Positions 37,673 through 58,500 of a DNA stretch of 64,000 nt are shown one piece after another. Location of the stretch: assembly GCA_964648365.1 (NCBI GenBank), contig CAZYLK010000001.1, positions 762 to 64,761 of the forward strand, given 5' to 3'. Numbering within the stretch: position 1 is the stretch's first letter; the number at the start of each line of letters is the position of its first letter. Under the pieces are notes generated by a model. It saw only the letters and a program-made list of their open reading frames with translations. It made no database searches and was not told where the DNA came from. This DNA comes from an uncultured Phycisphaeraceae bacterium. Its GTDB lineage: Bacteria; Planctomycetota; Phycisphaerae; UBA1845. The position numbers were made by a program, and so were the translations under genes.

Positions 37673-38046
37673 CGGGGGGAGATTCTAAAGTCTTGGGCAA
37701 TCTCGGCTCGACGGCGACCGCAGATCCTCGCGTCGGCCGGAAAAGAAAAACCGGAAGTACCGATGTCTGCCGTCGCTCCTGACGCAGACCGGGAAGTATA
37801 CACCGACATTAAGAATGCGTCAAACCGGCGCGAAGATTCCGGCAAATCTCCGGATGCTCGCGGGTGGAGCGCCGCAGCCCGGCCGAGCCGCGCACCGGCA
37901 CGTCCGCGCGGGTCGCCTGTTGAATCGCGGACACCGTTTCAAGTACGATGCTGGCACGGTTCTTGCTGGCGCGGGCGCCGCGATCTGAGCGTGTCAGCCG
38001 TCGGCGTCTGCGGCGTATCATCCGTCTGCTTGGGAGGATCACTGAA

Positions 38047-38880
38047 ATGAGAAACTGGGTTAAGTCGTGCGCGGCCCTCGTGGTGGCCGCGGGTCTGGTT
38101 CAGGTCGCGCTGGCCGGAGGCTCGACGCAGGTGCCCGCCGGATATCCCGGATCGGACTACGTGGGCTTCGAGTCCGTCCAGGGCCCGCAGGCGTCGGGCT
38201 GTCTTGAACTGGACATGAACCTGGGCCGCGGGGCCTACTCGAACATCGGCGAGACGGACCGCAGCGTCGCGGTGGACATCAACAGCCAGGTCAGCGTCAA
38301 CGCGATGGGAATCGTGTACCAGTCGGGCGCCGATCACGATCTCCTCTGCATCATCCGCGAGGTGAACGGCAACGTCCGCGGGAACGAACTGGCCCGTGAG
38401 CAGATCTTCGTGCCGGCCGGCGGGGGGATGGAGTATCACGACGTGCCGATCAACTTCACCTTTCAGCCCGGCACCCGCTACGACATCGCCTTCCAGGCTG
38501 TGCCCGACTGGGGCTTCAATGTTCACAGCATGGAGCTTCTGAACTTCAACAACCCGAACCTGGACCCGAACCAGGGGTTTGACGTGGGTCCGTTCAAGGT
38601 GCTGGACGGCGGCGCCGACCGGGCGAGCGGCTACTCGAACTTTCTGATGCCTCGAGTGCAGGTCTGCGAAGGCGGCGCCGGCTGCGTCTACACGATCAAG
38701 AAGAGCGCCGGCAAGAAGGGCTGCCAGACCTGTCCGGAGCGGGGCGCGGATCTGCGTACGCAGATCGAGTGCGAGGACGTCAACGACTGCGACAAGAAGG
38801 TTAAGACCCGCCTGTCCTGCCCGGGCGGCGGGAACGGATTCTGCAAGGTGAAGGGCAAGCGCTCGTCCTGCGGCGGGTGA
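38047..38880 (+). CDS. Secreted protein of unknown function with C-terminal 8-Cys domain
   Basis: Signal peptide MRNWVKSCAALVVAAGLVQVALA. C-terminal tail CVYTIKKSAGKKGCQTCP...CDKKVK...CKVKGKRSSCGG, paralogous to the tails at 17245-17451 and 63759-63960. Confidence 0.7.
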   Translation: MRNWVKSCAALVVAAGLVQVALAGGSTQVPAGYPGSDYVGFESVQGPQASGCLELDMNLGRGAYSNIGETDRSVAVDINSQVSVNAMGIVYQSGADHDLLCIIREVNGNVRGNELAREQIFVPAGGGMEYHDVPINFTFQPGTRYDIAFQAVPDWGFNVHSMELLNFNNPNLDPNQGFDVGPFKVLDGGADRASGYSNFLMPRVQVCEGGAGCVYTIKKSAGKKGCQTCPERGADLRTQIECEDVNDCDKKVKTRLSCPGGGNGFCKVKGKRSSCGG

Positions 38881-39442: not shown

Positions 39443-40201
39443 ATGATTCTCGGCAAGTTCTGGCATGTGGTGATGGCGCAGATCAACAAACTGGCCAACA
39501 TTTTCTGGACGGCCGATCCCATCGCTCAGATGCAATACGAGTACGACCAGGCAGTCGCCCAGATGAAGGAAGGCCGCGAGGGATTAGAGCAGTACCGCGC
39601 CCTGGTGGAACGGGTCAGCCGTCAGGTCGCGACGACGAAGCGGCACGTCGCCAACCTGGAGGCCAAGGTCAAAGCCTACCTGCAAGCCGGCGATCGCGAG
39701 ACGGCCGCCAAGTTCGCGCTGGAACTTCAGAAGGCCCGGGCGGAACTCGTCGAGAACGAAGAGCAGCTCACGCTGCACGAGACGGCCTACAACAACAACC
39801 TGACCAAGATCAAGCACGCTACCGGCAAGCTGGCCAAGGTACGTGAGAAGATCCAGAAGTACGACGCCGAACTGAAGATGAGCAAGGCCGAGGGTGAGAT
39901 GGCCAAGCTGGCTCAGTCGTTCAACTTCGACGTGACGACGGACTTCGGCGCCATCGAATCGGTCATTCAGGACAAGATCAGCCTCAACCGGGCCAAGGCG
40001 CGGGTCGCATCGGATCTTTCCAGCGAAGGCATTGTGGACGTGCAGCGCGAGCAGGCGATGGAACAGGCCATGGCCGATCAGGCCCTGCGCGAGTTCGAGA
40101 TGGACCTCGGGCTGGTGACGCCGGAGACGTCGTCTGTTGCCGATGAGACAAAGCAGCTTGGACCGGCCGTGACCGAGGCGAATACGCAGACGCAGGGGTG
40201 A
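39443..40201 (+). CDS. pspA: PspA/IM30 (Vipp1) family protein
   Basis: 252 aa, MILGKFWHVVMAQINKLANIFWTADPIAQMQYEYDQAV... with long coiled coil typical of PspA/IM30. The start was set to ATG 39443. Confidence 0.85.
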   Translation: MILGKFWHVVMAQINKLANIFWTADPIAQMQYEYDQAVAQMKEGREGLEQYRALVERVSRQVATTKRHVANLEAKVKAYLQAGDRETAAKFALELQKARAELVENEEQLTLHETAYNNNLTKIKHATGKLAKVREKIQKYDAELKMSKAEGEMAKLAQSFNFDVTTDFGAIESVIQDKISLNRAKARVASDLSSEGIVDVQREQAMEQAMADQALREFEMDLGLVTPETSSVADETKQLGPAVTEANTQTQG

Positions 40202-40560
40202 GGAAGAAGGGAGTAAGGGAGTGAGGGAGTAAGGGAGTAAGGGAAGAGGAACGATGCAACATTGTTCTACATCGCGCGGTTCTGCCGGCTCGCGAATCGC
40301 TTCCCCATCGCACCTGAAACAGCGTGCGCGATCACGCGCCAGCGCCGAGCCGCGGGCTTCAGCCCGCGCGATCCCCCCGGAAGTGAAGCGGCTACGAATC
40401 GCGCACTGTGATTTAGAAGAAGGCACCTCGGAAAAAGGACTGAGTCGGATGCGGAAACGTCGGGATGTCAGATTCGACGTGCCATCCGCTCTTCCCTTAC
40501 TCCCTCACTCCCTTACTCCCTCACTCCCTTCTTCGGGAACTCCCTCACTCCCTCCTTCCG
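40201..40560. repeat. Intergenic repeat complex: family A array forward (about 40209-40250), H4 hairpin (40347-40371), family A array reverse complement (40490-40560)
   Basis: The forward array reads gggagtaagggagtgagggagtaagggagtaagggaag. The hairpin reads gagccgcgggcttcagcccgcgcga. The reverse array reads cttcccttactccctcactcccttactccctcactcccttcttcgggaactccctcactccctccttcc. Confidence 0.9.
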
Positions 40561-40571
40561 AGGAGTCCTAA

Positions 40572-42473
40572 GTGGAACGCTCTACGACGCCGGTCGCACC
40601 CAGCACGCTGCCCGACTGGTATCCCGCCTGGGCGCGGGAGCTGGCGAATCTTTATTTCTCCGGCACGACCTGCGTCTTTCTGCTGCACGGCAATGTACAC
40701 GATCTGGTTCGGGTCGAGGCCGGCGGGCGCATTGAGCATACGAACGTACTCGATTTTCTCGCGTCGCAGATCTTCGGCTCTTGGGACGTGGTGCTGCAAT
40801 ACGACCTGGCGGCCGGCACGCGGCCCAAGGCCGGCAGCGACCAGAAGCGCCTCCGAGATATGGTTGCGTATCTGACTGCCCGGCTGGGCGACATGGGGCA
40901 GTGGACGCGCGAAGCGGGCAAAAACCTGCTGCTCTTTGACAAGCTGCTGGAACGCAACCTGGTCGAAGACAAGCCGGCCGAGCGGCGCAGCATCGCGCTG
41001 CTGTTCGATTACGCCCAATATCTGGTTCCGGCGGGGGGGGCCGGGATGATGAGCGCCGCGGCCGGGGCAAACCTCGTGCGGCTGCTGAGTTGGGCGCAAA
41101 GTCCCTACCTGAAGAAGGTCAACGTCGCCATCTGCCTGGTGGCCGACAAACTGGCCGAGATCAACGATCGGCTCGTGCAAAGCCCGCACGTGGCGACGGT
41201 CGAGATTCCGATGCCCGATACCGAGGCGCGGCGGCGGTTTATCGAGTCGGAGCACGTCGAGATCGCCGCCGGGCGATGCGGATTGTGCGGAGCGACCGCC
41301 GAAGGCAGCGGTCCAGACCGCGCGGCAGAGGGCGGCGCCGCCGCCGGGGGGGGCGGTGCGGAGGCCGCCGGGCGTCACGCTGGCGATCACGGTCAGGGCG
41401 GCCATGACCATGACGGCCACGACGCCGCGGAACTGGCCGAAATGTCGAACGGCCTCAGCCTGATAAACCTGAACGTGATCCTCTCCCGCGCACGTCAGAA
41501 GGGTGGCCCGATCGACGCGTCCGGCTTCCGCCGGGCCAAGAAGGATCTGATCGAGCGGCAATGCGAGGGGCTGCTCGAGTTCATCACGCCCAAGCACACG
41601 CTGGACATGGTGGTCGGGCTGGAGGCCGCCAAGAGCCGGCTGCGGGCCGATGGCGACCTGCTGACCCGCGGCCACCTCGACGCCGCCCCCATGGGATACC
41701 TGGTCAGCGGACCGGTCGGCACCGGCAAGACGTTTCTGGCTGAGTGCTACGCCGGCTCGATCGGCGTGCCGTGCGTCAAGCTGCGGAACTTCCGCTCCAA
41801 GTACGTGGGCGAAACCGAAGGGAATCTCGAGCACGTGCTGACCGTGCTGCGGTCGCTGGGTCCGGTGGTGGTCATCATCGACGAGGCGGACGCGGCCCTC
41901 GGTGATCGCGATAACTCCGGCGATTCCGGCACGTCGAGCCGCGTCTTCTCGATGATCGCCAGCCAGATGGGCGACACGCGCTACCGCGGACGGATCGTGT
42001 GGATGTTGCTGACCTGCCGACCCGACCTGCTGCCGATCGACCTGAAGCGCCAGGGGCGGGCGGAGGTTCACATTCCGCTGTTCTATCCGCAGAGCGACGC
42101 AGAACTGGCGGAAATGATCCAGGTCATGGCCCGCAAGAACCGCATCGGGTTCGAACGGCCCATCGAAGCCGCGGCCATGCCCCACCGCGAGATGAGCGGG
42201 GCGGACATCGAGAGCGTGCTGGTGCTGGCGCGGCGGTGTGCACTGACCGACGGCCGCGAGAAAGTTCGGCCGGAAGACGTGGAGGCGGCCCTGGCGGATT
42301 TCATCCCGTCGGTGCAGGGGCTGGAAAAGGAGATGCAGGAACTCGCGGCCGTGCTGGAGTGTACGCAACTGAGTTTCCTGACGCCGGCCTGGCGTGAGAA
42401 GGTGGAAAAACCAGACGGCCGCACCCGCTTGCAGGAGCGGATGGTCGCGATCCGACAGTTGATTGAGCAGTGA
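40572..42473 (+). CDS. AAA+ ATPase, classical clade C-terminal module with large N-terminal region (possibly a degenerate AAA-like domain)
   Basis: The GTG start is preceded by AGGAG. Walker A GPVGTGKTF, Walker B VVIIDEAD, and SRH-like TCRPDLLPIDLKRQGRAEVHIPLFYP. There is an internal Gly/His/Asp-rich insertion. Confidence 0.8.
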   Translation: MERSTTPVAPSTLPDWYPAWARELANLYFSGTTCVFLLHGNVHDLVRVEAGGRIEHTNVLDFLASQIFGSWDVVLQYDLAAGTRPKAGSDQKRLRDMVAYLTARLGDMGQWTREAGKNLLLFDKLLERNLVEDKPAERRSIALLFDYAQYLVPAGGAGMMSAAAGANLVRLLSWAQSPYLKKVNVAICLVADKLAEINDRLVQSPHVATVEIPMPDTEARRRFIESEHVEIAAGRCGLCGATAEGSGPDRAAEGGAAAGGGGAEAAGRHAGDHGQGGHDHDGHDAAELAEMSNGLSLINLNVILSRARQKGGPIDASGFRRAKKDLIERQCEGLLEFITPKHTLDMVVGLEAAKSRLRADGDLLTRGHLDAAPMGYLVSGPVGTGKTFLAECYAGSIGVPCVKLRNFRSKYVGETEGNLEHVLTVLRSLGPVVVIIDEADAALGDRDNSGDSGTSSRVFSMIASQMGDTRYRGRIVWMLLTCRPDLLPIDLKRQGRAEVHIPLFYPQSDAELAEMIQVMARKNRIGFERPIEAAAMPHREMSGADIESVLVLARRCALTDGREKVRPEDVEAALADFIPSVQGLEKEMQELAAVLECTQLSFLTPAWREKVEKPDGRTRLQERMVAIRQLIEQ

Positions 42474-42489
42474 TCTGGTGTGGCACCAT

Positions 42490-42512
42490 GTGGCACCGGT
42501 TTTCAACCGGTG
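42490..42512. repeat. H1 hairpin just downstream of AAA ATPase stop
   Basis: gtggcaccggttttcaaccggtg, preceded by a partial gtggcacc. Confidence 0.9.
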
Positions 42513-42693
42513 AGCTCTGGAGCCGGTCTGAGGCCGGCGCCACGCGATCAGCACCGTCCGCGCCGGGCGGATCGGGGAGCGGCCGCACCGGAGTACCTGG
42601 TTCGGCGCAGCCAGCACAGTGATCCCAGCGACGACCGCGTCCGGTCGCCGCGGCCGAAATATCGACCGACTCGAAACACGAAGGATTTTTCGC

Positions 42694-43290
42694 ATGGCCA
42701 GAAAGAAAAAAGTCGCGAAAAAGAAGGCAAGCAAGAAGCGAGCCGCCGGTGGCTCCGGGAAGAAGGCCGCCAGGCGCCCGGCCGCAAAGAAGCGCGGCTC
42801 TGCGAAGAAGAAAGGCGCCGCCCGGAAAACTGCCGGCAGCGGCAAGAAGGCAGCCGGCAAGAAGAAGAGCACGGGCAAAAAGGCCGCCGCGCGGGGGACG
42901 GCCGGCGCTGGCGGGAAGAAGTCGAAGCGCGGCGCGAAGCCCGCATCTCGAAAGGGAACATCCACGCGGCGGGCGGCTGCTCCCGGCCGCAGCTTCCACG
43001 ACCGCCCGTCAAGCTGGCTCGACGCCAACGCGGACGTGCCCGTGATCGAACAGGCGGCCCGAACCATGACGACGTTCATGGAGGCGATGGCCGACGGCGT
43101 CATCGACGATGGCGAAGTGCAGGCGCAGGAGCGGCGGCTGGTGGCGCTGATGAAGGAGATCGAGCCGCAACTTGACGACGAACTGCACGCATCGGTCACG
43201 AAACTGCTGGCCGAACTGACCGCGTACGACCTGATGCAGGTGCTGTGCGCCATGCACAAGGCCCGCGGTCAGACGACGTTTCAGGGGTGA
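42694..43290 (+). CDS. Histone H1-like Lys/Ala/Gly-rich protein with helical acidic C-terminal domain
   Basis: MARKKKVAKKKASKKRAAGGSGKKAARRPAAKKRG... continues for about 110 aa. Next comes EAMADGVIDDGEVQAQERRLVALMKEIEPQLDDEL, a TerB-like ADG..D..E pattern that is tentative. Confidence 0.65.
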   Translation: MARKKKVAKKKASKKRAAGGSGKKAARRPAAKKRGSAKKKGAARKTAGSGKKAAGKKKSTGKKAAARGTAGAGGKKSKRGAKPASRKGTSTRRAAAPGRSFHDRPSSWLDANADVPVIEQAARTMTTFMEAMADGVIDDGEVQAQERRLVALMKEIEPQLDDELHASVTKLLAELTAYDLMQVLCAMHKARGQTTFQG

Positions 43291-43472
43291 CGTGGGGCGG
43301 TGGCCGCGGTCGCGCGGGTTTGGCGCTGCCTGCTTCGGAAGGGCTCTGTGCGGCCGTCGGTGCAGCGCCATCCTTCCCCAGAGATGGGCGCCGCGGAGTG
43401 CCAGGAGGCGAGCGAAGGAGCAGACCGGGCGACGCGCCTGCCGTCGACTCGCGAGGACAGGAGGTGACTTGA

Positions 43473-44279
43473 ATGAGGTCGGCGACCGGACAATCTCGAC
43501 AACTCGCACGGCTGTGTTCGCTGGGCGTCGTCTCGATCGCGGCGCTCATCATGTTCTTTCCAAGTTGCGACCGTGACTCGTCGTCATCGACCGGAGGTCG
43601 GTCCCCGTCGCGCCAGTCGGGCAAGCGCGTCAGCGCCGGCCCAATCGACCTGCCCCAGGCGGACCAGCGGCTGTGCACGGGTGTCGTGCTGCTGGTGGAC
43701 ACGTCGGGCAGCATGAACCAGAAGGTGCGCGATCGCGGCGGCGCGGAACAGCCCAAGCACGTGATCGCTCGAGCGGCGATCGACCGGATCGTGGCGTATA
43801 CCGATCAGTGGCAAACGCAGCATCCCGACCGCGTGCTGCACCTCGGCGTGCTCAATTTCAGCAGCTCCGCCCATACGGTCATGCCGCTGGCGGCGTTTGA
43901 CGCTGCCACGGCCGCGGAGGCCGCGACGCGCATACCGGCGCCGGGCGGAGGAACCGCCATCGGCTCAGCCCTGCAGGAAGGCTTCAAGGCGCTCTATGCC
44001 TCCGGCTGCGTGCGGAAGTACGTCGTCTGCATCACCGACGGCGAGAACACGTCCGGCCCGCCGCCCGACCGGGTCGCCCGCGCGCTGCACGGCCAGACGG
44101 AAGGCGACGTCGAGATCCACTTTGTTGCATTCGACACGTCGCCCGCTAAGTTCGCATTCCTGTCGAAGGTCAACGGCTACGTCGTCGAGGCGGCGGACGG
44201 GGCGCAGCTCGACGCGCGGCTGGCCGATATCTATGAGAAACGGATCCTGGCGGAGGCGATGACGCTCGAAAAGGAATAG
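43473..44279 (+). CDS. von Willebrand factor A (vWA) domain lipoprotein
   Basis: RBS AGGAGGTG. Lipobox-like MFFPSC. MIDAS motif LVDTSGSM. GGGTAIGSAL and ITDGENTSG segments. Confidence 0.85.
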   Translation: MRSATGQSRQLARLCSLGVVSIAALIMFFPSCDRDSSSSTGGRSPSRQSGKRVSAGPIDLPQADQRLCTGVVLLVDTSGSMNQKVRDRGGAEQPKHVIARAAIDRIVAYTDQWQTQHPDRVLHLGVLNFSSSAHTVMPLAAFDAATAAEAATRIPAPGGGTAIGSALQEGFKALYASGCVRKYVVCITDGENTSGPPPDRVARALHGQTEGDVEIHFVAFDTSPAKFAFLSKVNGYVVEAADGAQLDARLADIYEKRILAEAMTLEKE

Positions 44280-44563
44280 CGAATGTCGAATAGCGAATAA
44301 CGAATGAAGCTCGCGCCGGTGCAGCGATCCTTCAGAACGGGGAGCGTAAACGACCGGCTGCGGAGGAATGTCGAATGTCGAATGAAGAGCAAATCGGAGC
44401 GGAGCGGCGCTATCCGGGCCGGAGCCGGAGACCACTGACAGAGGAAATGGGGATCGAGAATGGAGCCGTCTGACGCTGGAGCAGCATGTTCGTCTTCTCT
44501 GCATTCGACATTCGACATTCGCCATTCGACATTGAACCTTAGCCATTCGCCATTCGACATTCC
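44275..44563. repeat. Family B octamer arrays: forward 44275-44309 and 44366-44387, reverse complement 44502-44562
   Basis: The forward arrays read aatagcgaatgtcgaatagcgaataacgaatgaag and gaatgtcgaatgtcgaatgaag. The reverse array reads cattcgacattcgacattcgccattcgacatt..agccattcgccattcgacattcc. The vWA stop TAG (44277-44279) lies in the first unit. Confidence 0.9.
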
Positions 44564-44603
44564 CAACGCTGGTAGCGTTGGATAGTTAGACAGGAGATAC
44601 ACT

Positions 44604-46376
44604 ATGGCAGGAAAGCCGAAAGCATCTTTTTTCGTGGTTATGGCCATCGTTGTGATTGGCCTTGTGGGCTTCGCGGGGTATCGGCTGATGAGTTCCGGCG
44701 ACGACGCCGGGGACGGAGCGCGCACCGCCGCAACGCAGCCGCCCGCGTCCGACTCGTCGCCGTCGACGACGCCACCGGCCCAGCCCGCGGATGGCGCGGC
44801 CGAGGCGCCCGACGCCGCCGGCGTCACCACCGTCAAGGAATACAAGTTCGTTCCCAGCGAGCGGCTGCCGGAAGTTCGTGGCATCTCGGGATATGAGCTT
44901 GAAGACAACACGGTCCGCTTCGCGCTGAACGTGTGGGCCGGGTGGGGGCCGATTATCTTCGCCAACGATGGCTTCCGCGCCGGCAAGGAGTGGAAAACGC
45001 CGGACGGCCAGACCTTCAAGGTGGAACTGGTCTTGATCGACAACCCGGTCGCCATGCGCGACGCCTACGCGGCCGGGAGCGTGCAGATCGGCTGGGCGAC
45101 GCTGGACATGGTGCCGCTGTTTATGGAGGGGTTTGTCGATACCAACGGCCGGCCGCGCGACTCGCGGGTCATGCCGCGCATCTATCAACAGGTCGACTGG
45201 TCGAACGGCGGCGACGGCATCGTCGTCCGGGAGAACATCAAGACGGTCGCCGACCTGCGCGGCAAGACGATTGCACTGGCACAGAACTCGCCCTCGCAGT
45301 ATTTCGCGCTGAACATGCTGATCGCCGGGGGCATTCAGCCGTCAGAGGTGCAGTTCGTTTACACCGAGGACGCCTTCCAGGCGGCGGCGGCGTTTAATGC
45401 TCAGCAGTCGATCGCGGGCGCCGTTTCCTGGGCGCCGGACATCTACAACCTTGAAAGCGTGCGCGGCAACCGGATGCTGGTGACTACGGCGACCGCGAAC
45501 AAGCTGATCGCCGACGTGTGGTTTGCCCGTGCGGACTTCGCCAAGGACCATCCCGGCATCGTCGAGGGACTGGTGCGCGGCATTTTCGACGCCATGATCG
45601 ACCTGAAGGACGAGTCGAACCGCAAGCACTGCGCGGAACTGATGGCGACCGGTTACAACCTGCCGCCCAGCGACACCCTCGCCATGTTCGGCGACGCCCA
45701 CAGCACGAACTGGGCCGAGAACTATCAGTTCTTCGTCAATCAGAACAACCCGGCCAACTTCGAGCGGGTCTGGAACCAGGCCTATTACCTCTATCGCCGG
45801 ATCGGCGCGATCACGCATCAGCCGGTGCCGTTCGATCAGGTGATGGATTACTCGATCATCGACAAGCTGGGCAAAGAGCCGAAGTACTCGAGCCAGAAGG
45901 ACGAGTACAAGATGCAGTTCACGCCGACGACGGTGGGCGAAATCCGGGCCGAGGAAGAGATTCTTACCAACACGGTCTTTATCCACTTCTTCCCCAACAG
46001 TTGGGATCTTCACAAGAAGGTCACCAAGAAGGTGGACGGCAAAGATGTCGAGGAAATGTATGATCCGAACGTTGATTTCGTACTGGAGGATATCGCCAAG
46101 CTGGTCGGGCAGTTCGGCGCGGCTCGCATCGTCATCGAAGGGCACACCGACAGCTCGATGAAAGGGAAAGTCCCGCCCAGCTTGGTGAAAGAGTTGTCCT
46201 TGCATCGCGCCAAGTCGGTCATGGAGCAGCTTGTACAAAAGTACAGCCTTGATCCCAACCAGTTCGGCGTCGAGGGTATGGGCTGGGACCGGCCGGCGGA
46301 TTCCAACGACCCGGAGAACCACGCCAAGAACCGCCGCGTCGAGGTGAAAGTCTACCCGGCCGAGGCGGGGGGGTAG
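44604..46376 (+). CDS. NitT/TauT-type ABC substrate-binding protein fused to a C-terminal OmpA-like domain
   Basis: The N-terminus is a TM/signal anchor. The SBP body is NrtA/SsuA-like (GKTIALAQNSPSQYFALNML). The C-terminal part GHTDSS...LSLHRAKSV...NRRVEVKV is the OmpA/MotB peptidoglycan-binding signature. AGGAG lies 7 nt before the ATG. Confidence 0.8.
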   Translation: MAGKPKASFFVVMAIVVIGLVGFAGYRLMSSGDDAGDGARTAATQPPASDSSPSTTPPAQPADGAAEAPDAAGVTTVKEYKFVPSERLPEVRGISGYELEDNTVRFALNVWAGWGPIIFANDGFRAGKEWKTPDGQTFKVELVLIDNPVAMRDAYAAGSVQIGWATLDMVPLFMEGFVDTNGRPRDSRVMPRIYQQVDWSNGGDGIVVRENIKTVADLRGKTIALAQNSPSQYFALNMLIAGGIQPSEVQFVYTEDAFQAAAAFNAQQSIAGAVSWAPDIYNLESVRGNRMLVTTATANKLIADVWFARADFAKDHPGIVEGLVRGIFDAMIDLKDESNRKHCAELMATGYNLPPSDTLAMFGDAHSTNWAENYQFFVNQNNPANFERVWNQAYYLYRRIGAITHQPVPFDQVMDYSIIDKLGKEPKYSSQKDEYKMQFTPTTVGEIRAEEEILTNTVFIHFFPNSWDLHKKVTKKVDGKDVEEMYDPNVDFVLEDIAKLVGQFGAARIVIEGHTDSSMKGKVPPSLVKELSLHRAKSVMEQLVQKYSLDPNQFGVEGMGWDRPADSNDPENHAKNRRVEVKVYPAEAGG

Positions 46377-46385
46377 ACCTCTGGC

Positions 46386-46576
46386 GTGGCACCGGTTCCG
46401 GTGTGGCACCGGTTTCCAACCGGTGAGTCCGGTGTGGCACCGGTTTGCAACCGGTGAGTCTGATGTGGCACCGGTTTGCAACCGGTGGATCACCTTCCGG
46501 GGTCTGATGCAGGGTTACGCGCACTGGTTGCAAACCAGTGCCACAATTGAAGACACCGGTTGAAAACCGGTGCCAC
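46386..46576. repeat. H1 hairpin array (one partial and three full forward copies, two reverse copies) between SBP gene and permease gene
   Basis: Forward copies gtggcaccggtttSCaaccggtg lie at 46403, 46434 and 46465 with a 31-bp period. Reverse copies are cactggttgcaaaccagtgccac at 46522 and caccggttgaaaaccggtgccac at 46554. Confidence 0.9.
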
Positions 46577-46608
46577 ATAAGAGGGTGCATCGCAGCACTC
46601 GGACGGAC

Positions 46609-47712
46609 ATGGACCAACCACCGGACAATCCACCGCAGGCATCCAAGGCTCCAAGCGCGCGGAAGCCCGAAGACGACCTGGCCGCGGCCGTCGATCATCG
46701 CCCGCTGACGCCCAAGGCGGGGACATCCGGCGGCGCTTCGAGTCACGGCGCCGCGGGCGCCCAAAGCGCCCGCTGGTTCGGCCTGCGCAAGCCCGCCGGC
46801 CGGGTCCAGATCATTCTTCTGGGCATCGCCTGCATCGTCTGCGTCTTCGGCGCCTGGTCGATCCTGACCTCCGGCGTGCCGGAAGAGCGCATCTGGGGGC
46901 CGACCGTCCTGCCCAGCCCGTCCGAGACCTTTAACGCATTCCCGACCCTGTGGACCGACCGCGAACTGATGCGCAATACCGGCGTCACGCTCAAGCGGGT
47001 GGTGCTGGGATTCGCCCTCGCCTGCATCGTCGGCGTTCCCATCGGCGTCGCGTGCGGCTGCTTTGGCCCGATCGGGGCATTCATGGCGCCATTGACGCTG
47101 GTGGGGCGAAACATCCCCATCGCCGCGCTGATTCCGCTGACGTTTTCGCTGTTCGGCATTGGCGAGCAGCAGAAAATCATGTTCATCTTCATCGCATGCG
47201 TCGCCTTCATCATCGCCGACACGGCCGGGGCCATTGCGGACGTGGAGGAGCGATACGTCGATACGGCCTTTACACTCGGCGCGAGGACGCGGCAGATCAT
47301 CATGAAGGTGCTCGTGCCGCTGGCGATCCCATCGGTGTTCAACTCGCTGCGAGTGCTGTTCGGCCTGGCGTTCGGCTACATCATGCTGGCGGAACTGGTC
47401 AAGTTCGGCGGCGAGGCGGGCGGACTCGGCGACATCATCATCATGTCCCAGCGCCGCGGCCAGCGCGAGCACATCCTGCTCGTCCTGATGATCATCCCGC
47501 TGATCGCCCTGGGGCTGGACCGCATCCTGTTTCTCATCCAACGCAGCCTCTTCCCGCATCGCTACGGCGGGCGCGGAATGCTCAATCGCGGGTTCGCTGT
47601 CGTGGTGCATCGCTGGGAGGACTTCAAGGGGCTGTTCTGGACATCCGGCGCAGGGGCATCGGCTGACGGTCCGGGTGCGAGCTCCGACAACGCGCGAGGG
47701 ACCGGCGCATGA
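46609..47712 (+). CDS. ABC transporter permease (NitT/TauT family)
   Basis: Polytopic, with an EAA-like loop region (TLGARTRQIIMKVLVPLAIPS). Its stop overlaps the ATPase start (ATGA). The start was set to ATG 46609. Confidence 0.85.
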   Translation: MDQPPDNPPQASKAPSARKPEDDLAAAVDHRPLTPKAGTSGGASSHGAAGAQSARWFGLRKPAGRVQIILLGIACIVCVFGAWSILTSGVPEERIWGPTVLPSPSETFNAFPTLWTDRELMRNTGVTLKRVVLGFALACIVGVPIGVACGCFGPIGAFMAPLTLVGRNIPIAALIPLTFSLFGIGEQQKIMFIFIACVAFIIADTAGAIADVEERYVDTAFTLGARTRQIIMKVLVPLAIPSVFNSLRVLFGLAFGYIMLAELVKFGGEAGGLGDIIIMSQRRGQREHILLVLMIIPLIALGLDRILFLIQRSLFPHRYGGRGMLNRGFAVVVHRWEDFKGLFWTSGAGASADGPGASSDNARGTGA

Positions 47713-48611
47713 GCGGCGCAACTCCGCATCGCAATACCGGCGACTCCGGCGCGAGAAGCGTGACCGATTCCACGGCCACGGTTGACCGGCCCCGTGCCGC
47801 GCCGGCATCGCCCCTCCCCCCCGTCGTCGAGTTTCGCAACGTCACCAAGACCTACGCCGCCGGTACGCCCAAGGCCTACACCGCCATCAAGGACGTGACC
47901 TTCACCGTCGAAGACCTTGTCGATCATGGCGAGTTCATCACCGTCCTCGGCCCCAGCGGCTGCGGCAAAAGCACGATCCTTCGACTGATCGCCGGGCTGG
48001 CCCCCCAGCACCCGCCGACGACCGGCGACGTACTCGTCCTGGGCAGCCCCGTGACCGGCCCCGGCGCCGACCGCGGCATGGTTTTCCAGGACTACACCAG
48101 CTTCGACCACCGGACCGTGCTCGACAACGTCACCTTCGGCCTGGAGTGCCGCGGCGTGCCGCGCGATGAGCGCTATGCCATCGGCCGCGAGTGGATCCGC
48201 CGCGTCGGCCTGGCGGAGGCCGATGAGCACAAATACCCGCACCAGCTTTCCGGCGGGATGCGGCAGCGCGTCGCCATCGCCCGCACGCTGGTCCTGCGGC
48301 CGCGGATCATCCTGATGGACGAGCCGTTCGGAGCCCTCGACCCACAGACTAGGATGCACATGCAGGATCTGCTCGTGTCTTTGTGGCGGAACGTCCAAGC
48401 CACGGTGTTTTTCGTGACCCACTCGATCGAGGAGGCGGTCTACCTGGGCGACCGGGTGTACGTCCTCAGCAGCGCCCCCGGCCGGCTGGTCGAGGAGCGA
48501 AAAGTCCCCCCGCCCGACCGCCCCGCCCTGGCGATGCGCAAGGAGCGTGAATTTCAGGAGACGGTGGCGTACATTCGCGACCTTGTGACCCGACTGGACG
48601 AGGGAAGCTGA
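47709..48611 (+). CDS. ABC transporter ATP-binding protein (NitT/TauT family)
   Basis: Walker A GPSGCGKST, signature LSGGMRQRVAIARTL and Walker B ILMDEPFGALD. Confidence 0.92.
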   Translation: MSGATPHRNTGDSGARSVTDSTATVDRPRAAPASPLPPVVEFRNVTKTYAAGTPKAYTAIKDVTFTVEDLVDHGEFITVLGPSGCGKSTILRLIAGLAPQHPPTTGDVLVLGSPVTGPGADRGMVFQDYTSFDHRTVLDNVTFGLECRGVPRDERYAIGREWIRRVGLAEADEHKYPHQLSGGMRQRVAIARTLVLRPRIILMDEPFGALDPQTRMHMQDLLVSLWRNVQATVFFVTHSIEEAVYLGDRVYVLSSAPGRLVEERKVPPPDRPALAMRKEREFQETVAYIRDLVTRLDEGS

Positions 48612-48616
48612 CGCGC

Positions 48617-49504
48617 ATGCGCCGCCCGGCCGGAAAACTCGGCACCTATCTGAAGGCAGCGTTCACCCACCACTGGAACCTGCTGGCCTTTTTCGGTGCG
48701 CTGGGTTTTTCCCTGCTCAGCGGCATGCCGGACGTGCTGATCCCTCTGGTGGTGGCCGGCGAGATGGTCTATGTGGGCGGGCTGGCCGCGCATCCGAAGT
48801 TCCAGGCCTACATCGACGCCCAGGCGGCCAAGGCGGTCCGGCAGGACGGCTCGTCCCGCTCGCAGCAGATGCTCAATACCATGCTGCGCCGGCTCCCGCC
48901 GCGCACGATTGACCGGTTCGAGACGCTGCGCAACCGCTGCCTGGAACTGCGACAACTCGCCCTGGAACTGAAAGACCCCGGCCACACCGGCGGCGCGCGC
49001 CCGCTCGACGACATGCAGATGTCCGGCCTGGACCGGCTGCTGTGGATCTACCTGCGGTTGCTGTTTACCGAGCATTCGCTGGAGCGCTTCCAGGAGCGCA
49101 CCCACCCGTCGCAGGTCGAAGCGGACATCGAGGCGCTGGAGGCCCAGCTTTCCGACAGCGCGTCGATCGCCGACGACATTCAGCGGCAGAAGGTTCAGCG
49201 CACCCTTCAGGACAACCTCCAGACCTGCCGCGACCGGCTCGCCAACCTGCAGAAAGCCCGTGACAACCTCACGGTGGTCAAGCTCGAACTCGACCGGCTG
49301 GAAAACAAAATCCGCGCCTTAAGCGAACTGCCCCTCAACCGCCAGGAGCCCGACTACATCACTGCCCAGGTGGACGCGGTGGCATCGAGCATGGTGCAGA
49401 CCGAGCAGACGATGAACGAACTGCAATTCGCCACCGGCCTGGAAACGGCCGACGAAGCCGTGCCGCCGCTGATGAGCCGGCCGGTGGCGATGATGCAGGA
49501 ATAG
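48617..49504 (+). CDS. Hypothetical membrane protein with two N-terminal TM helices and long coiled coil
   Basis: 295-aa ORF 6 nt after the ABC ATPase gene. It has WNLLAFFGALGFSLLSGMPDVLIPLVVAGEMVYVGGL followed by Q/L/E-rich heptads. Confidence 0.6.
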   Translation: MRRPAGKLGTYLKAAFTHHWNLLAFFGALGFSLLSGMPDVLIPLVVAGEMVYVGGLAAHPKFQAYIDAQAAKAVRQDGSSRSQQMLNTMLRRLPPRTIDRFETLRNRCLELRQLALELKDPGHTGGARPLDDMQMSGLDRLLWIYLRLLFTEHSLERFQERTHPSQVEADIEALEAQLSDSASIADDIQRQKVQRTLQDNLQTCRDRLANLQKARDNLTVVKLELDRLENKIRALSELPLNRQEPDYITAQVDAVASSMVQTEQTMNELQFATGLETADEAVPPLMSRPVAMMQE

Positions 49505-49534
49505 CGAATAGCGAATGGCGAATAACGAATGAAG
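49500..49534. repeat. Family B octamer array spanning a stop codon and the argH start codon
   Basis: aatagcgaatagcgaatggcgaataacgaatgaag. The TAG at 49502-49504 ends the upstream gene, and the ATG at 49529-49531 (unit GAATGAAG) starts argH. Confidence 0.9.
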
Positions 49535-55516: not shown

Positions 55517-58500
55517 ATGCGAGTGCTTGGCGGCTACGACGCGCAACTGGATGCACGGGTGCGGGAACTCGGCCGTGAGATCTTCGAGCGGGCGGCCGAC
55601 GCGACCCCGCGGTTCGGGCAGCGCGCCTGGGCGCTGGAGAAGCTGACCTCCTGGGTGGACAGCGACCCGAAGCTCAAGGCGGCGGCCTTCGAGTTCGTGG
55701 CGACGCTGCCGTCGCTGCGGGATGACCATGACATCGCCCGCCACCTGGCGGAGTTCATGGCACAGCGCGAGGTTGATCTGCCGCTGCCGGCGCGGTGGGC
55801 GCTGGGGCTGGGTTCAGACCACCGGTTGCAAACCGGTGCCACATCGGATCACCGGTTGCAAACCGGTGCCACATCGGATCACCGGTTGCAAACCGGTGCC
55901 ACACCGGATCACCGGTTACAAACCGGTGCCACACCGGATCACCAACTGGAGACCGGTGCCACAGGGGACCACCGGTTGCAAACCGGTGCCACAGGTGACG
56001 GCAATGCGACGTTGCTCTCGTCGCTGATCGGCGTGATGGCCCGTCGCGGGGCGTCCGCGATGGCGGAGCGCTTCATCACCGGGCACGACGAGGCCAGCGT
56101 CACGGCGACCCTGGAGCGATTCCGCTCGCAGGGCATGACGTTCACGCTCGACGTGCTGGGCGAGTCTACGACCAGCGATGCCGTAGCGGAACGATATCTC
56201 AACACCTACCTCGAACTGATCGAGCACCTGTGCCCACGCGCGGCCACGTGGTCGAACGCGCCGACGATTGACCGGACCGATCGCGGACAGCAGCCGCGGG
56301 TCAACATTTCCATCAAGCTGACCGGCCTCGATCCGCACTTCGACCCCGTCGATCCGCAGCGTTCCATTGACGAAGTCTGCGCCCGCATCACGCCGCTCCT
56401 GCGCCGGTCGCGGGAACTCGGCGCGTTCGTCAACGTGGACATGGAGGCCTTCCGCTATCGCGACCTGACGCTCGACCTGTTTGAGCATCTGATGATGCGA
56501 CCGGAATTCCGGGATTGGGAAGATGTCGGCATCGTGGTTCAGGCCTACCTTGCGGACGGCGAGCGTGACCTGGCCCGTCTGCTCGACTGGGGTCGCAATC
56601 GCGGTTCGCGGTTCGCGGTGCGACTCGTCAAGGGCGCTTATTGGGACACAGAGGTCGCGCTGGCGGCGGAGGCGGGTCTGCCTCCGCCGGTGTGGACGCA
56701 GAAGTGGCAGTCCGACGCCTGCTACGAGCGCATGACGCGCGTCATGCTCGCCCATACGGATGTCATTCGACCGTGCTTCGCCAGCCACAACGTCCGCTCG
56801 CTGGCTCACGTGCTGGGCACGGCCGAGCGATACGGACTGACGCCGCGGTCGTATGAAGTCCAGATGCTCTACGGCATGGGCGACCCTCTCAAGGATGCGA
56901 TGGTTCGCATGGGCCAGTGCCTGCGCGTCTACTCGCCCTACGGCGACATGATCCGCGGCATGGCCTACCTGATCCGCCGGCTTATCGAGAACACGTCGAA
57001 CGACTCGTTCCTGAAGCAGGGCTTCACGCATCGTGCGGGCTACGACCGTCTGCTCGCCGATCCCGCGATCGCCGGGCCGGCGAGGAACGGGCGGGGCGGC
57101 AGCGGCAATGGCGCGGATTCAGGTGCGCCCGAGGCATCGACGCCCGGAGTCGCGCAATCCGACTTCGGCCGTCGCGAAACCCGCGACGCCATGACCGCCG
57201 CGCTGAAGCGCCGGGGCGACGTTCCGACGTTCATGCCCTACGTCGCCGGTCGGTTTATCACCGCGACGGCGACGGAGGATGCCGCGGATGCGTCGCGCCC
57301 GGGCGTCGCCATCGCCAGGATCGGTCTGGCCCGGCCGGCGGACGTGGACGATGCCGTCGCCGCGGCCCGAACCGCCGCTGCCGCGTGGTCTGCACGCAGC
57401 GATGCGGAGCGCCGGGAGGCGGTGGCAGCGCTGACGGAACGCATGATCACCCGGCGGATGGAACTGGCGGCGTGGCTGATCCGCGACGCTGGGATGACAT
57501 GGCGTGCGGCGGACATCGAAGTGGCGGCCGCGATCCGTGCCTGTCGCCGGTGGGGGGCGACCCTGCCTGCCGCGACTCGCCCGGGCGGCAGGGTCTGGGC
57601 AGCGTTACTGCCCTGGAACGCGCCGCTGTCGGTGGCTGCGGAAGTGCTGGCCTGCGGGTTGGCCGCCGGACGGGCCGTCATACTCAAGCCGGATCTGCGC
57701 GCCGCTTGCGCCGCCTGCGTGCTGGCGACGCTCGTCGACGAGTTGGAGCTGCCCGCGGGTCTTGCAGCGATTGTTGCCGGGCCTGATCCCGCTACGGCTG
57801 GACGCCTGACGCGGCATACCGGCGTCGACCGCCTGATTCGTATCGGCCCGCCCGATCCCGACCTGGACGCCGCATCCGGCGAGGGGGCCGGGCGTGCCTT
57901 CGGCCGGACGTTTGTGCCCGATTCGGTGGTTGTCGTCGGGCACACGGCCAATCTCGACGCAGCCGTGTGGGGTGCGGTCCAGTCGGCGTACGACTTCGCC
58001 GGGCAGTCGTTCTCCGCCGCCAAGCGGATTATCGTCGATGCGGCGGTCCACGACGCGTTCGTCGAGCGGCTGAAGGAGGCGGTCGAAAGCCTGATGATCG
58101 GGCCGGCCGATGCCCCGCTGACGCTGGTCGGGCCGATGATCGACGAGGCGGCGAGGGAGCGGTTTCGGCGATCCGTCGCAGCCGTGGCCTCGATCTCTCG
58201 GATCGTCGTCGATCGCACCGCTGCCGCTGACGCGGCGTCCGGCTGCGTCGGTCCACTGCTTCTGACGGGGGCGCAGCTCGCGCCCGCGGCGATCGGCCCC
58301 GTGGCCTGCGTCTACAGAGCCGCCAGTTTCGAGCAGGCGTTGCGGATGGCGAACGCACGCCCCGCACCCGCGGCGGCGGTCTACACCCGCACGCCGTCGC
58401 AGCTTCGCGCCGCTCGCATCGCCCTGGCGGAATCGGAGGTTACGATAAACACGCCGGTGGCTGGCGGAGGCTGGGGCGGCCTGGGGCAGTTGGTTCTATC

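Follow-up and report, generated by a model that had tools for sequence, protein, structure and literature searches.

An eight-gene cluster pairing PspA with a tandem AAA+ ATPase, a candidate trans-envelope membrane-remodeling system in Planctomycetota and other phyla

We analyzed a 64,000-nt stretch of DNA from an uncultured Phycisphaeraceae bacterium (contig CAZYLK010000001.1; hereafter the window, GC content about 65%), in which a gene for PspA is followed on the same strand by a gene for an AAA+ ATPase. An annotation made earlier from the sequence alone (the original prediction) had grouped these two genes with a Lys-rich "H1-like" gene and a von Willebrand factor A (vWA) lipoprotein gene as a possible membrane-remodeling or stress module. 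All four genes were found on the + strand where they had been placed, each with the domain matches expected of it, and all four belong together; the proposed extent, which left out an ABC importer and a transmembrane coiled-coil protein (TMcc), covered half of the cluster. We found that the cluster comprises eight genes on the + strand (39443-49504), which make up one conserved system (Table 1; coordinates are positions in the window). The permease and ABC ATPase genes overlap by 4 nt, and the spacers between the first four genes, described beforehand as repeat-filled and 370, 220 and 182 nt long, are exactly that. The cluster lies downstream of dnaG, and an argininosuccinate-lyase-like gene directly follows TMcc; in a close relative (locus L081) the flanking genes are rpoD and dnaG.

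Table 1. Genes of the cluster and short repeats in the window
Feature	Position	Strand	Description
pspA	39443-40201	+	252 aa; Pfam PF04012 PspA_IM30
Tandem AAA+ ATPase	40572-42473	+	633 aa; PF00004 AAA
Small Lys-rich protein	42694-43290	+	198 aa; conserved core downstream of ATPase in relatives
vWA lipoprotein	43473-44279	+	268 aa; VWA_2, DTSGS MIDAS (metal ion-dependent adhesion site)
Solute-binding protein fused to OmpA	44604-46376	+	590 aa; Pfam OmpA, NMT1, Phosphonate-bd
ABC importer permease	46570-47712	+	380 aa; BPD_transp_1, Pfam E 4.7e-16
ABC transporter ATPase	47709-48611	+	300 aa; Pfam ABC_tran E 9e-27
TM coiled-coil protein (TMcc)	48617-49504	+	295 aa; hydrophobic N-terminus and long coiled coil
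Repeats in cluster	40203-40248/40489-40534; 42484-42514; 44272-44401/44497-44564; 46380-46582; 49497-49534		
Repeats elsewhere in window	~571, 8795, 12261, 1821, 7255, 15368, 55820-55992		

The window proteins were compared by tblastn with 80 ATPase-encoding loci, which came from a scan of one genome per species and belong mostly to Planctomycetota (Gemmataceae, Pirellulales, Planctomycetaceae), with some from Gemmatimonadota and Acidobacteriota; the denominators given here count loci with enough flanking sequence. The adjacency of pspA and the ATPase gene, on whose conservation the original prediction had staked its case beforehand, was found in 68 of 74 loci, with pspA immediately upstream and on the same strand, a linkage far stronger than chance would give. 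Immediately after the ATPase gene, 70 of 72 loci encode the conserved core of the small Lys-rich protein. Furthermore, a gene for the binding protein-OmpA fusion lies no more than 3 kb downstream in 39/54 loci, and one for the ABC ATPase within 7 kb in 23/37. The permease gene is likewise conserved among the loci. The window ATPase (P0001) shares 88% identity with a protein encoded in a Phycisphaerales metagenome-assembled genome (MAG), and the genes of the closest relative (GCA_003597935.1, locus L081), whose positions were looked up via the 88%-identical protein P0002, stand in the identical eight-gene order.

The same gene set also recurs outside the Planctomycetota. The planctomycete order is pspA, AAA+ ATPase, small protein, vWA (in some loci), binding protein-OmpA, permease, ABC ATPase and TMcc. 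Gemmatimonadota, Acidobacteriota and further metagenome relatives have a second order, which runs vWA, pspA, binding protein-OmpA, permease, ABC ATPase, TMcc, AAA+ ATPase and small protein, and in these distant phyla the ATPase is 47-49% identical to that of the window. In this order the end of the TMcc gene meets the start of the ATPase gene or runs into it (-13 to +46 nt), with pspA about 4.4 kb further upstream of the ATPase, so that the genes of the two candidate polymer proteins, PspA and TMcc, each abut the ATPase gene in one of the orders. Taken together, these results demonstrate that each of the eight cluster genes recurs as part of a single system, that this system is found in two orders, and that its linkage is conserved in at least three phyla.

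PspA matched PF04012 over aa 1-217 (E 1.6e-14; 54.5 bits against a cut-off of 33.9) and is by its predicted domain a subunit of the ESCRT-III superfamily. Its N-terminus is hydrophobic and contains Trp (MILGKFWHVVMA...), and the protein is 54-79% identical to the PspA encoded upstream of the ATPase in other loci; mean column identity for this subfamily in the cluster alignment is 75%. A profile of the family matched Synechocystis Vipp1 (sll0617) weakly over aa 5-200 (E 0.17). Past the Pfam match we found a conserved C-terminal extension, ALRxFExxxGxxTPxT...KxLG (aa ~205-245, window 40055-40180), with the invariant residues L215, E219, G223, P227, K237 and G240, which from its sequence is a candidate docking element. 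As to an ATPase-recruiting MIT-interacting motif (MIM), a comparison of the extension with solved peptide complexes returned no match, and an unconfirmed likeness to what we take to be the C-terminus of yeast Snf7 (...ALRELQAEMGL) was given no weight.

The ATPase had been called classical-clade on its C-terminal motifs, and this assignment was borne out: PF00004 matched aa 377-502 (E 2.2e-22), AAA_lid_3 matched aa 541-571 weakly (19.9 bits, below the cut-off of 27.2), and the motifs cited earlier (GPVGTGKTF, VVIIDEAD and RPDLLPIDLKRQGRAEVHIPL) were all found. This C-terminal AAA+ module, D2 (aa ~370-580), is intact, with Walker A GPVGTGKT, Walker B DEAD, a KYVG pore loop and the Arg fingers R493/R496, all invariant across 40 homologues, and is followed by a conserved C-terminal helical extension. 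The N-terminal half, for which either an MIT-like or a degenerate AAA domain had been envisaged, drew no Pfam match over aa 1-343. Its motifs, an AlphaFold2 (AF2) model (mean pLDDT 73.9, pTM 0.69) and Foldseek searches with that model ruled out an MIT-like domain and fit a degenerate AAA module, D1 (aa ~19-330), which has HGNVHD at the Walker A position and LLFDYAQ at the Walker B position, and thereby neither the Walker A Lys nor the Walker B Glu. In our reading of D1, ...TTCVFLLHGNVHDL corresponds to strand 1 and the P-loop, LLFDYAQYL to Walker B, and ICLVADKL...VATVEIPMPD to the sensor-1 and second region of homology. The module begins at about aa 19, and the model has no separate N-domain.

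The closest structural matches to the ATPase model were Rix7/NVL, p97, Afg2 and Pex1/6 (Foldseek E 1e-16 to 1e-14 over 610-680 columns), tandem AAA+ proteins to which its structural-alignment identity is only about 15-18%. The sequence of D2 is closest to Cdc48, Afg2, p97, NVL and Rix7, and the best phmmer match of the ATPase in the PDB was Cdc48 (E 6.9e-34), with no Vps4 chain among the best 60 PDB matches listed. NCBIfam ranked PAN, CDC48 and FtsH above CdvC, which scored 32.8 bits against a cut-off of 650. Both the sequence and the model indicate that the protein is a Cdc48/Rix7-like tandem (type II) classical AAA+ ATPase; with best matches to Cdc48, p97, Afg2 and Rix7, orthology to Vps4 did not hold. 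At E<=1e-3 the D1 domain family comprises 1077 representative clusters, and at E<=1e-10 it comprises 433. In some of its members (among them P0282, P0288 and P0315; 818-856 aa) the degenerate AAA domain is preceded by an N-terminal addition of about 250 residues, and these variants may have a recognition domain of their own. In addition, a Gly/Ala/His-rich insert (aa ~228-285, window 41250-41430) lies between the D1 core and lid of the window ATPase; it is lineage-specific, being shared only with the 88%-identical relative, and disorder is predicted for it (pLDDT <50 over aa 240-280).

Directly after the ATPase comes the Lys-rich protein, whose reading frame extends from 42619 or 42694, with the ATG at 42694 (MARKKK...) the most plausible start. 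The first 105 aa are a low-complexity, polybasic tail (28 K, 13 R and 1 acidic residue), and its C-terminal 93 aa are acidic and belong to a conserved region of about 95 aa, whose invariant positions include W3, D29, G30, E36, Q40, E52, P53, H60 and Y73. The "H1-like" label proved to be compositional only: NCBIfam hist_H1_lk_Burk scored 21.3 bits against a cut-off of 80, and the basic tail is missing from most orthologues, which are 96-110 aa long. AF2 predicted three helices for the core (pLDDT 71.8), and we found no relative of it in Pfam, among PDB sequences or by Foldseek. Across 42 members Pfam gave nothing significant (DUF533 and DUF1707 in 2 members each, E >=0.03), and the best Foldseek match was EsxB at E 1.6. 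Identification as an MIT, TerB, SHOCT or EF-hand-like domain, prompted by the ADGxVDxxE motif, was unsupported by Pfam, PDB profile and Foldseek. The small protein is the tightest genomic partner of the ATPase, since it directly follows it in both gene orders, and we infer that it acts as an adaptor or regulator of the ATPase.

At the far end of the planctomycete cluster, TMcc is 40% identical to its counterpart in a locus of the second order (L080:9058-9951). Its hydrophobic N-terminus spans aa ~20-58, of which a scan of the window protein flags aa 28-58 and the family alignment adds the earlier segment, and we read this region from the sequence as two putative transmembrane (TM) helices.

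The vWA protein matched VWA_2 (E 6e-13) and VWA (E 4e-12), carries the DTSGS MIDAS motif, and has a signal peptide with a lipobox Cys (FPSC in the window). The earlier lipoprotein call therefore holds, and the gene is a recurrent member of the cluster: in every vWA homologue a Cys comes after the signal peptide (ATGC, GTGC, ASGC or ILGC), and by these signals the protein is an exported lipoprotein, predicted to be periplasmic. The homologues in L001, L002, L005 and L081 occupy the same position as the window gene, those in L080, L082, L084 and L085 lie directly upstream of pspA, and identity is 39-57% (81% in the close relative L081); a weaker vWA gene (29%) lies further downstream in L021. 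Within Planctomycetota the gene looks sporadic (window, L001, L002, L005 and L081) but it is recurrent in the second order. The analogy to recurrent bacterial AAA+/vWA pairings, drawn in the original prediction, fails: the vWA protein is exported in all homologues and therefore forms no MoxR-style pair with a cytoplasmic ATPase, and the window ATPase is of the PF00004 classical type, unlike MoxR, with its vWA partner in another compartment. The solute-binding protein is membrane-anchored and has an N-terminal TM segment (aa 7-25), a TauA/SsuA/NMT1-type domain and a C-terminal OmpA-like peptidoglycan-binding domain, and its PDB matches were TauA (E 1.1e-9), SsuA and Omp38.

Independent transcription had been raised as a caveat on account of the spacers, and we examined these in turn. 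The spacer between pspA and the ATPase gene (40202-40571) is made of a repeat insertion: 8-nt units (GGGAGTAA/GGGAGTGA) at 40203-40248 return as their reverse complement at 40489-40534, giving 46-nt inverted arms, and the predicted RNA fold reaches -198.6 kcal/mol (z -10.3). At 370 nt it is the largest of 71 pspA-ATPase spacers, whose median is about 100 nt, and in the closest relative the spacer is 9 nt long and the inverted repeat pair is absent. Three short-repeat families, often in inverted pairs, occur across the window: the 8-nt tandems, which recur at ~571, 8795 and 12261; 7-nt CGAATGT/CGAATAG tandems; and a 31-nt unit with the palindrome GTGGCACCGGTTTGCAACCGGTG, similar to repetitive extragenic palindromes (REP-like) and present in up to 5 tandem copies. 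Because the same families occur elsewhere in the window, the repeats within the cluster are generic intergenic elements. Given this, together with the 9-nt spacer of the closest relative and the median of about 100 nt, the 370-nt spacer is a lineage-specific insertion and no evidence for separate units. A scan of the spacers for promoters and terminators found no sigma-70-like sites and no + strand terminators, a result that is uninformative in a planctomycete of 65% GC; Rfam returned nothing on the spacers beyond a chance microRNA match (E 0.063).

Some further features of the window and of related loci were also recorded. Upstream of pspA, positions 37948-38880 encode a 310-aa predicted secreted Cys-rich protein, which was matched by neither Pfam nor NCBIfam and is found in none of the related loci; in the closest relative its place is taken by a 1348-aa FG-GAP protein. 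At two Pirellulales loci (L014 and L071) a divergent pair upstream, seen by eye only, consists of a ~200-aa protein resembling an extracytoplasmic function (ECF) sigma factor and a ~850-aa protein. Operons near-identical to those of freshwater Pirellulales also occur in several MAG records that bear the titles Chitinophagaceae, Chitinophaga or Candidatus Kuenenia (L025, L060, L031, L033, L036, L037 and L064), which suggests that these contigs are mislabeled or misbinned.

An operon of this kind has been described previously. Ravi, Anantharaman, Aravind and Gennaro (mSystems 2024, PMC11237479) report that bacterial PspA occasionally co-occurs with a two-AAA+ protein whose N-terminal copy is inactive, possibly as part of extended operons that also encode an ABC ATPase, a permease, a PBPB+OmpA protein and a TM-Snf7 protein; their examples are OGG56892.1 from Candidatus Handelsmanbacteria and AEY64321.1 from Clostridium. 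From comparative genomics, without experiments, the paper proposes ATP-dependent membrane remodeling comparable to Snf7/VPS4, and it also casts the AAA+ partners as chaperones in membrane-complex assembly. The remodeling or stress role suggested for the window genes has thus been put forward independently for the operon type. The gene content is the same (PspA, degenerate plus active AAA, binding protein-OmpA, permease, ABC ATPase and a helical protein anchored in the membrane); the published gene order is matched exactly by the relatives from Gemmatimonadota and Acidobacteriota, and the planctomycete order is permuted relative to it. TMcc is the positional counterpart of the gene given there as "SIG+TM+Snf7", although the Snf7 assignment was not reproduced here, and the accessible description names neither the ~95-aa three-helix protein nor the vWA lipoprotein. 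Measured against that description, the cluster is a further example of an already published operon type and not a new class. Our literature search found no experimental follow-up of the PspA-tandem AAA+ operon.

We compared the cluster with several known systems. With the ESCRT-III/Vps4 pairs (CdvB/CdvC, CHMP/VPS4) it has in common an ESCRT-III-superfamily gene beside a classical AAA+ gene with an intact pore loop, and the conserved C-terminal extension of its PspA could act as a docking element; the cluster differs in having an ABC importer instead of ESCRT-I or ESCRT-II components. The cluster is at most an analogue of ESCRT-III/Vps4 and not an orthologue, its ATPase not being of the Vps4 type. 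The tandem D1-D2 fold and the D2 motifs are common to the window ATPase and Cdc48/p97/VAT, Afg2/Drg1, Rix7/NVL and Pex1/Pex6, but the window protein has no N-terminal double-psi barrel or other N-domain, and its D1 is without any nucleotide-binding motifs. A single catalytically active ring is also known among tandem AAA+ proteins (Pex1/Pex6 D1, NSF D2). The classical Psp system of Proteobacteria (PspF-PspABC) resembles the cluster in placing PspA beside an AAA+ protein in an envelope-stress context, yet PspF is a sigma-54 enhancer-binding AAA+ protein with a helix-turn-helix (HTH) domain that is inhibited by PspA, and we detected no HTH, NtrC-type AAA, PspB or PspC domain in the eight cluster proteins. 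In chloroplasts, polymers of Vipp1/IM30 are disassembled by the chaperones HSP70B-CDJ2; there an ATP-driven chaperone works on a PspA-family polymer, as is proposed for the cluster, but it is an Hsp70, not an AAA+ protein, and is not operon-linked.

Our preferred reading, to which we give a probability of about 0.5, is that the cluster encodes a trans-envelope system in which a tandem AAA+ ATPase, active in D2 only, remodels PspA and possibly TMcc with the help of the small protein, and is coupled to the importer and the vWA lipoprotein. By analogy with ESCRT-III, PspA, and possibly TMcc too, would form polymers at the inner membrane, on its cytoplasmic side. The ATPase would form a Cdc48-like hexamer that hydrolyzes ATP in D2 only, with the degenerate D1 serving as an assembly or docking ring. 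This hexamer would thread or extract polymer subunits through the D2 pore, so that the polymer is remodeled or recycled, as Vps4 does for ESCRT-III. Because the ATPase is without an N-terminal recognition domain, we assign substrate recognition provisionally to the small three-helix protein as adaptor or regulator, to the PspA C-terminal extension as docking element, or to both; in some lineages the polybasic tail of the small protein might anchor it on anionic membrane. The periplasmic half, consisting of the peptidoglycan-tethered TauA/SsuA-like protein with its ABC importer and the vWA lipoprotein, would couple remodeling to the uptake or sensing of what is presumably a small solute at the cell wall. 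Because of this coupling, the arrangement suggests a role in envelope or osmotic stress.

Several observations weigh against this reading. First, the ATPase is tandem, without the MIT domain and the Vps4 beta-domain of the ESCRT-III/Vps4 systems. Second, searches with TMcc by Pfam, PDB profile and hhalign returned no sign of Snf7 or PspA, the hhalign probability being 0.3% against the PspA profile and 0.6% against an approximate yeast Snf7 sequence. Third, the model of the small protein is only moderately confident and has no informative homologue. In addition, pspA is missing from the flank of the ATPase in 3 of 74 loci (L014, L018 and L071), and the spacers of this genome, across which co-transcription would have to run, are long and strongly structured. 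Finally, 15 of 54 loci have no ABC module in the vicinity, and coupling to transport is therefore not obligatory.

An unlikely but serious alternative makes TMcc or the ABC transporter the main target of the ATPase, which would serve its extraction or assembly as a chaperone comparable to Cdc48, Msp1 or FtsH; PspA would then be a co-expressed, passive stress protein that seals the membrane, and no substrate. This explanation draws on the second gene order, in which TMcc and not pspA adjoins the ATPase start while pspA is several kilobases (~4.4 kb) away, on the closeness of the ATPase to general unfoldases, and on the chaperone framing of AAA+ partners for membrane complexes in Ravi et al. (PMC11237479). 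Planctomycetota, however, show the reverse arrangement: pspA abuts the ATPase (68/74 loci; 9 nt in L081) and TMcc is at the far end of the cluster. Furthermore, the strong conservation of PspA (75% mean column identity), including its dedicated extension, points to a specific partner.

The tight linkage of pspA to the ATPase gene would also suit a scheme in which PspA regulates the ATPase and is not its substrate, with envelope damage titrating PspA to the membrane and freeing the ATPase for other clients. There is precedent in E. coli, where PspA binds and inhibits the AAA+ protein PspF (PMC7619361). The window ATPase, however, is classical-clade and not NtrC-type, without sigma-54 activator features or HTH, and the conservation of its pore loop and Arg fingers suits a threading enzyme; regulation by PspA also leaves the adjacent adaptor-like protein unexplained. 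We consider this scheme improbable.

Still less credible is the suggestion that the neighbors have no common function, with the ABC importer and the pspA/AAA pair forming separate units that keep their synteny in relatives by coincidence and are independently transcribed here. The long spacers (182-370 nt) with their strongly folding repeats, and the loci in which the ABC module is missing from the flank (15/54), could be taken that way, but distant phyla have the eight genes as well, in a second order and with an ATPase that is 47-49% identical, the spacers are short in relatives and the repeats generic across the window, and the + strand spacers contain no terminator-like sites, for what a scan at 65% GC is worth. 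AAA+/vWA pairs are common, and the AAA domain weakly matches the IetA/IteA defense ATPases, but an anti-phage or MoxR-like AAA+/vWA system can be dismissed, since the IetA matches are generic (45-51 bits against the NCBIfam IteA cut-off of 510), PADLOC gave only generic AAA and MotB domain matches, the vWA protein is an exported lipoprotein beside a PF00004 classical rather than MoxR-type ATPase, and phylum-wide conservation with housekeeping flanks is unlike a mobile defense island.

Returning to the trans-envelope remodeling system, its stronger form is that of a dedicated bacterial ATP-driven remodeler of ESCRT-III polymers, in which the tandem AAA+ ATPase and a small adaptor would take the part of Vps4 without being orthologous to it, disassembling or reshaping PspA and a second helical polymer anchored in the membrane, and would be wired to the peptidoglycan-tethered importer and the vWA lipoprotein as a machine for repair or remodeling across the envelope; this we put forward tentatively, as a possibility short of an even chance. 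The idea of remodeling is already published by Ravi et al. (PMC11237479); what the present analysis contributes is a definition of all eight genes, of both gene orders and of two components not remarked on before. If true, the proposal would contradict a 2025 review (PMC7619361), in which a Vps4-like ATPase is described as apparently absent in bacteria. In archaea and eukaryotes it is Vps4 that disassembles such polymers, and the cluster offers a concrete and widely conserved bacterial candidate with defined, purifiable parts. In addition, the cluster joins a protein of the ESCRT-III type to an ABC importer tethered to the cell wall, which echoes the gene for the solute-binding protein ProX that Makarova et al. 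found in one archaeal ESCRT locus type and hints at a common logic of solute uptake and membrane repair. The candidate remodeler is spread over many lineages of the Planctomycetota, a phylum noted for its elaborate membrane invaginations.

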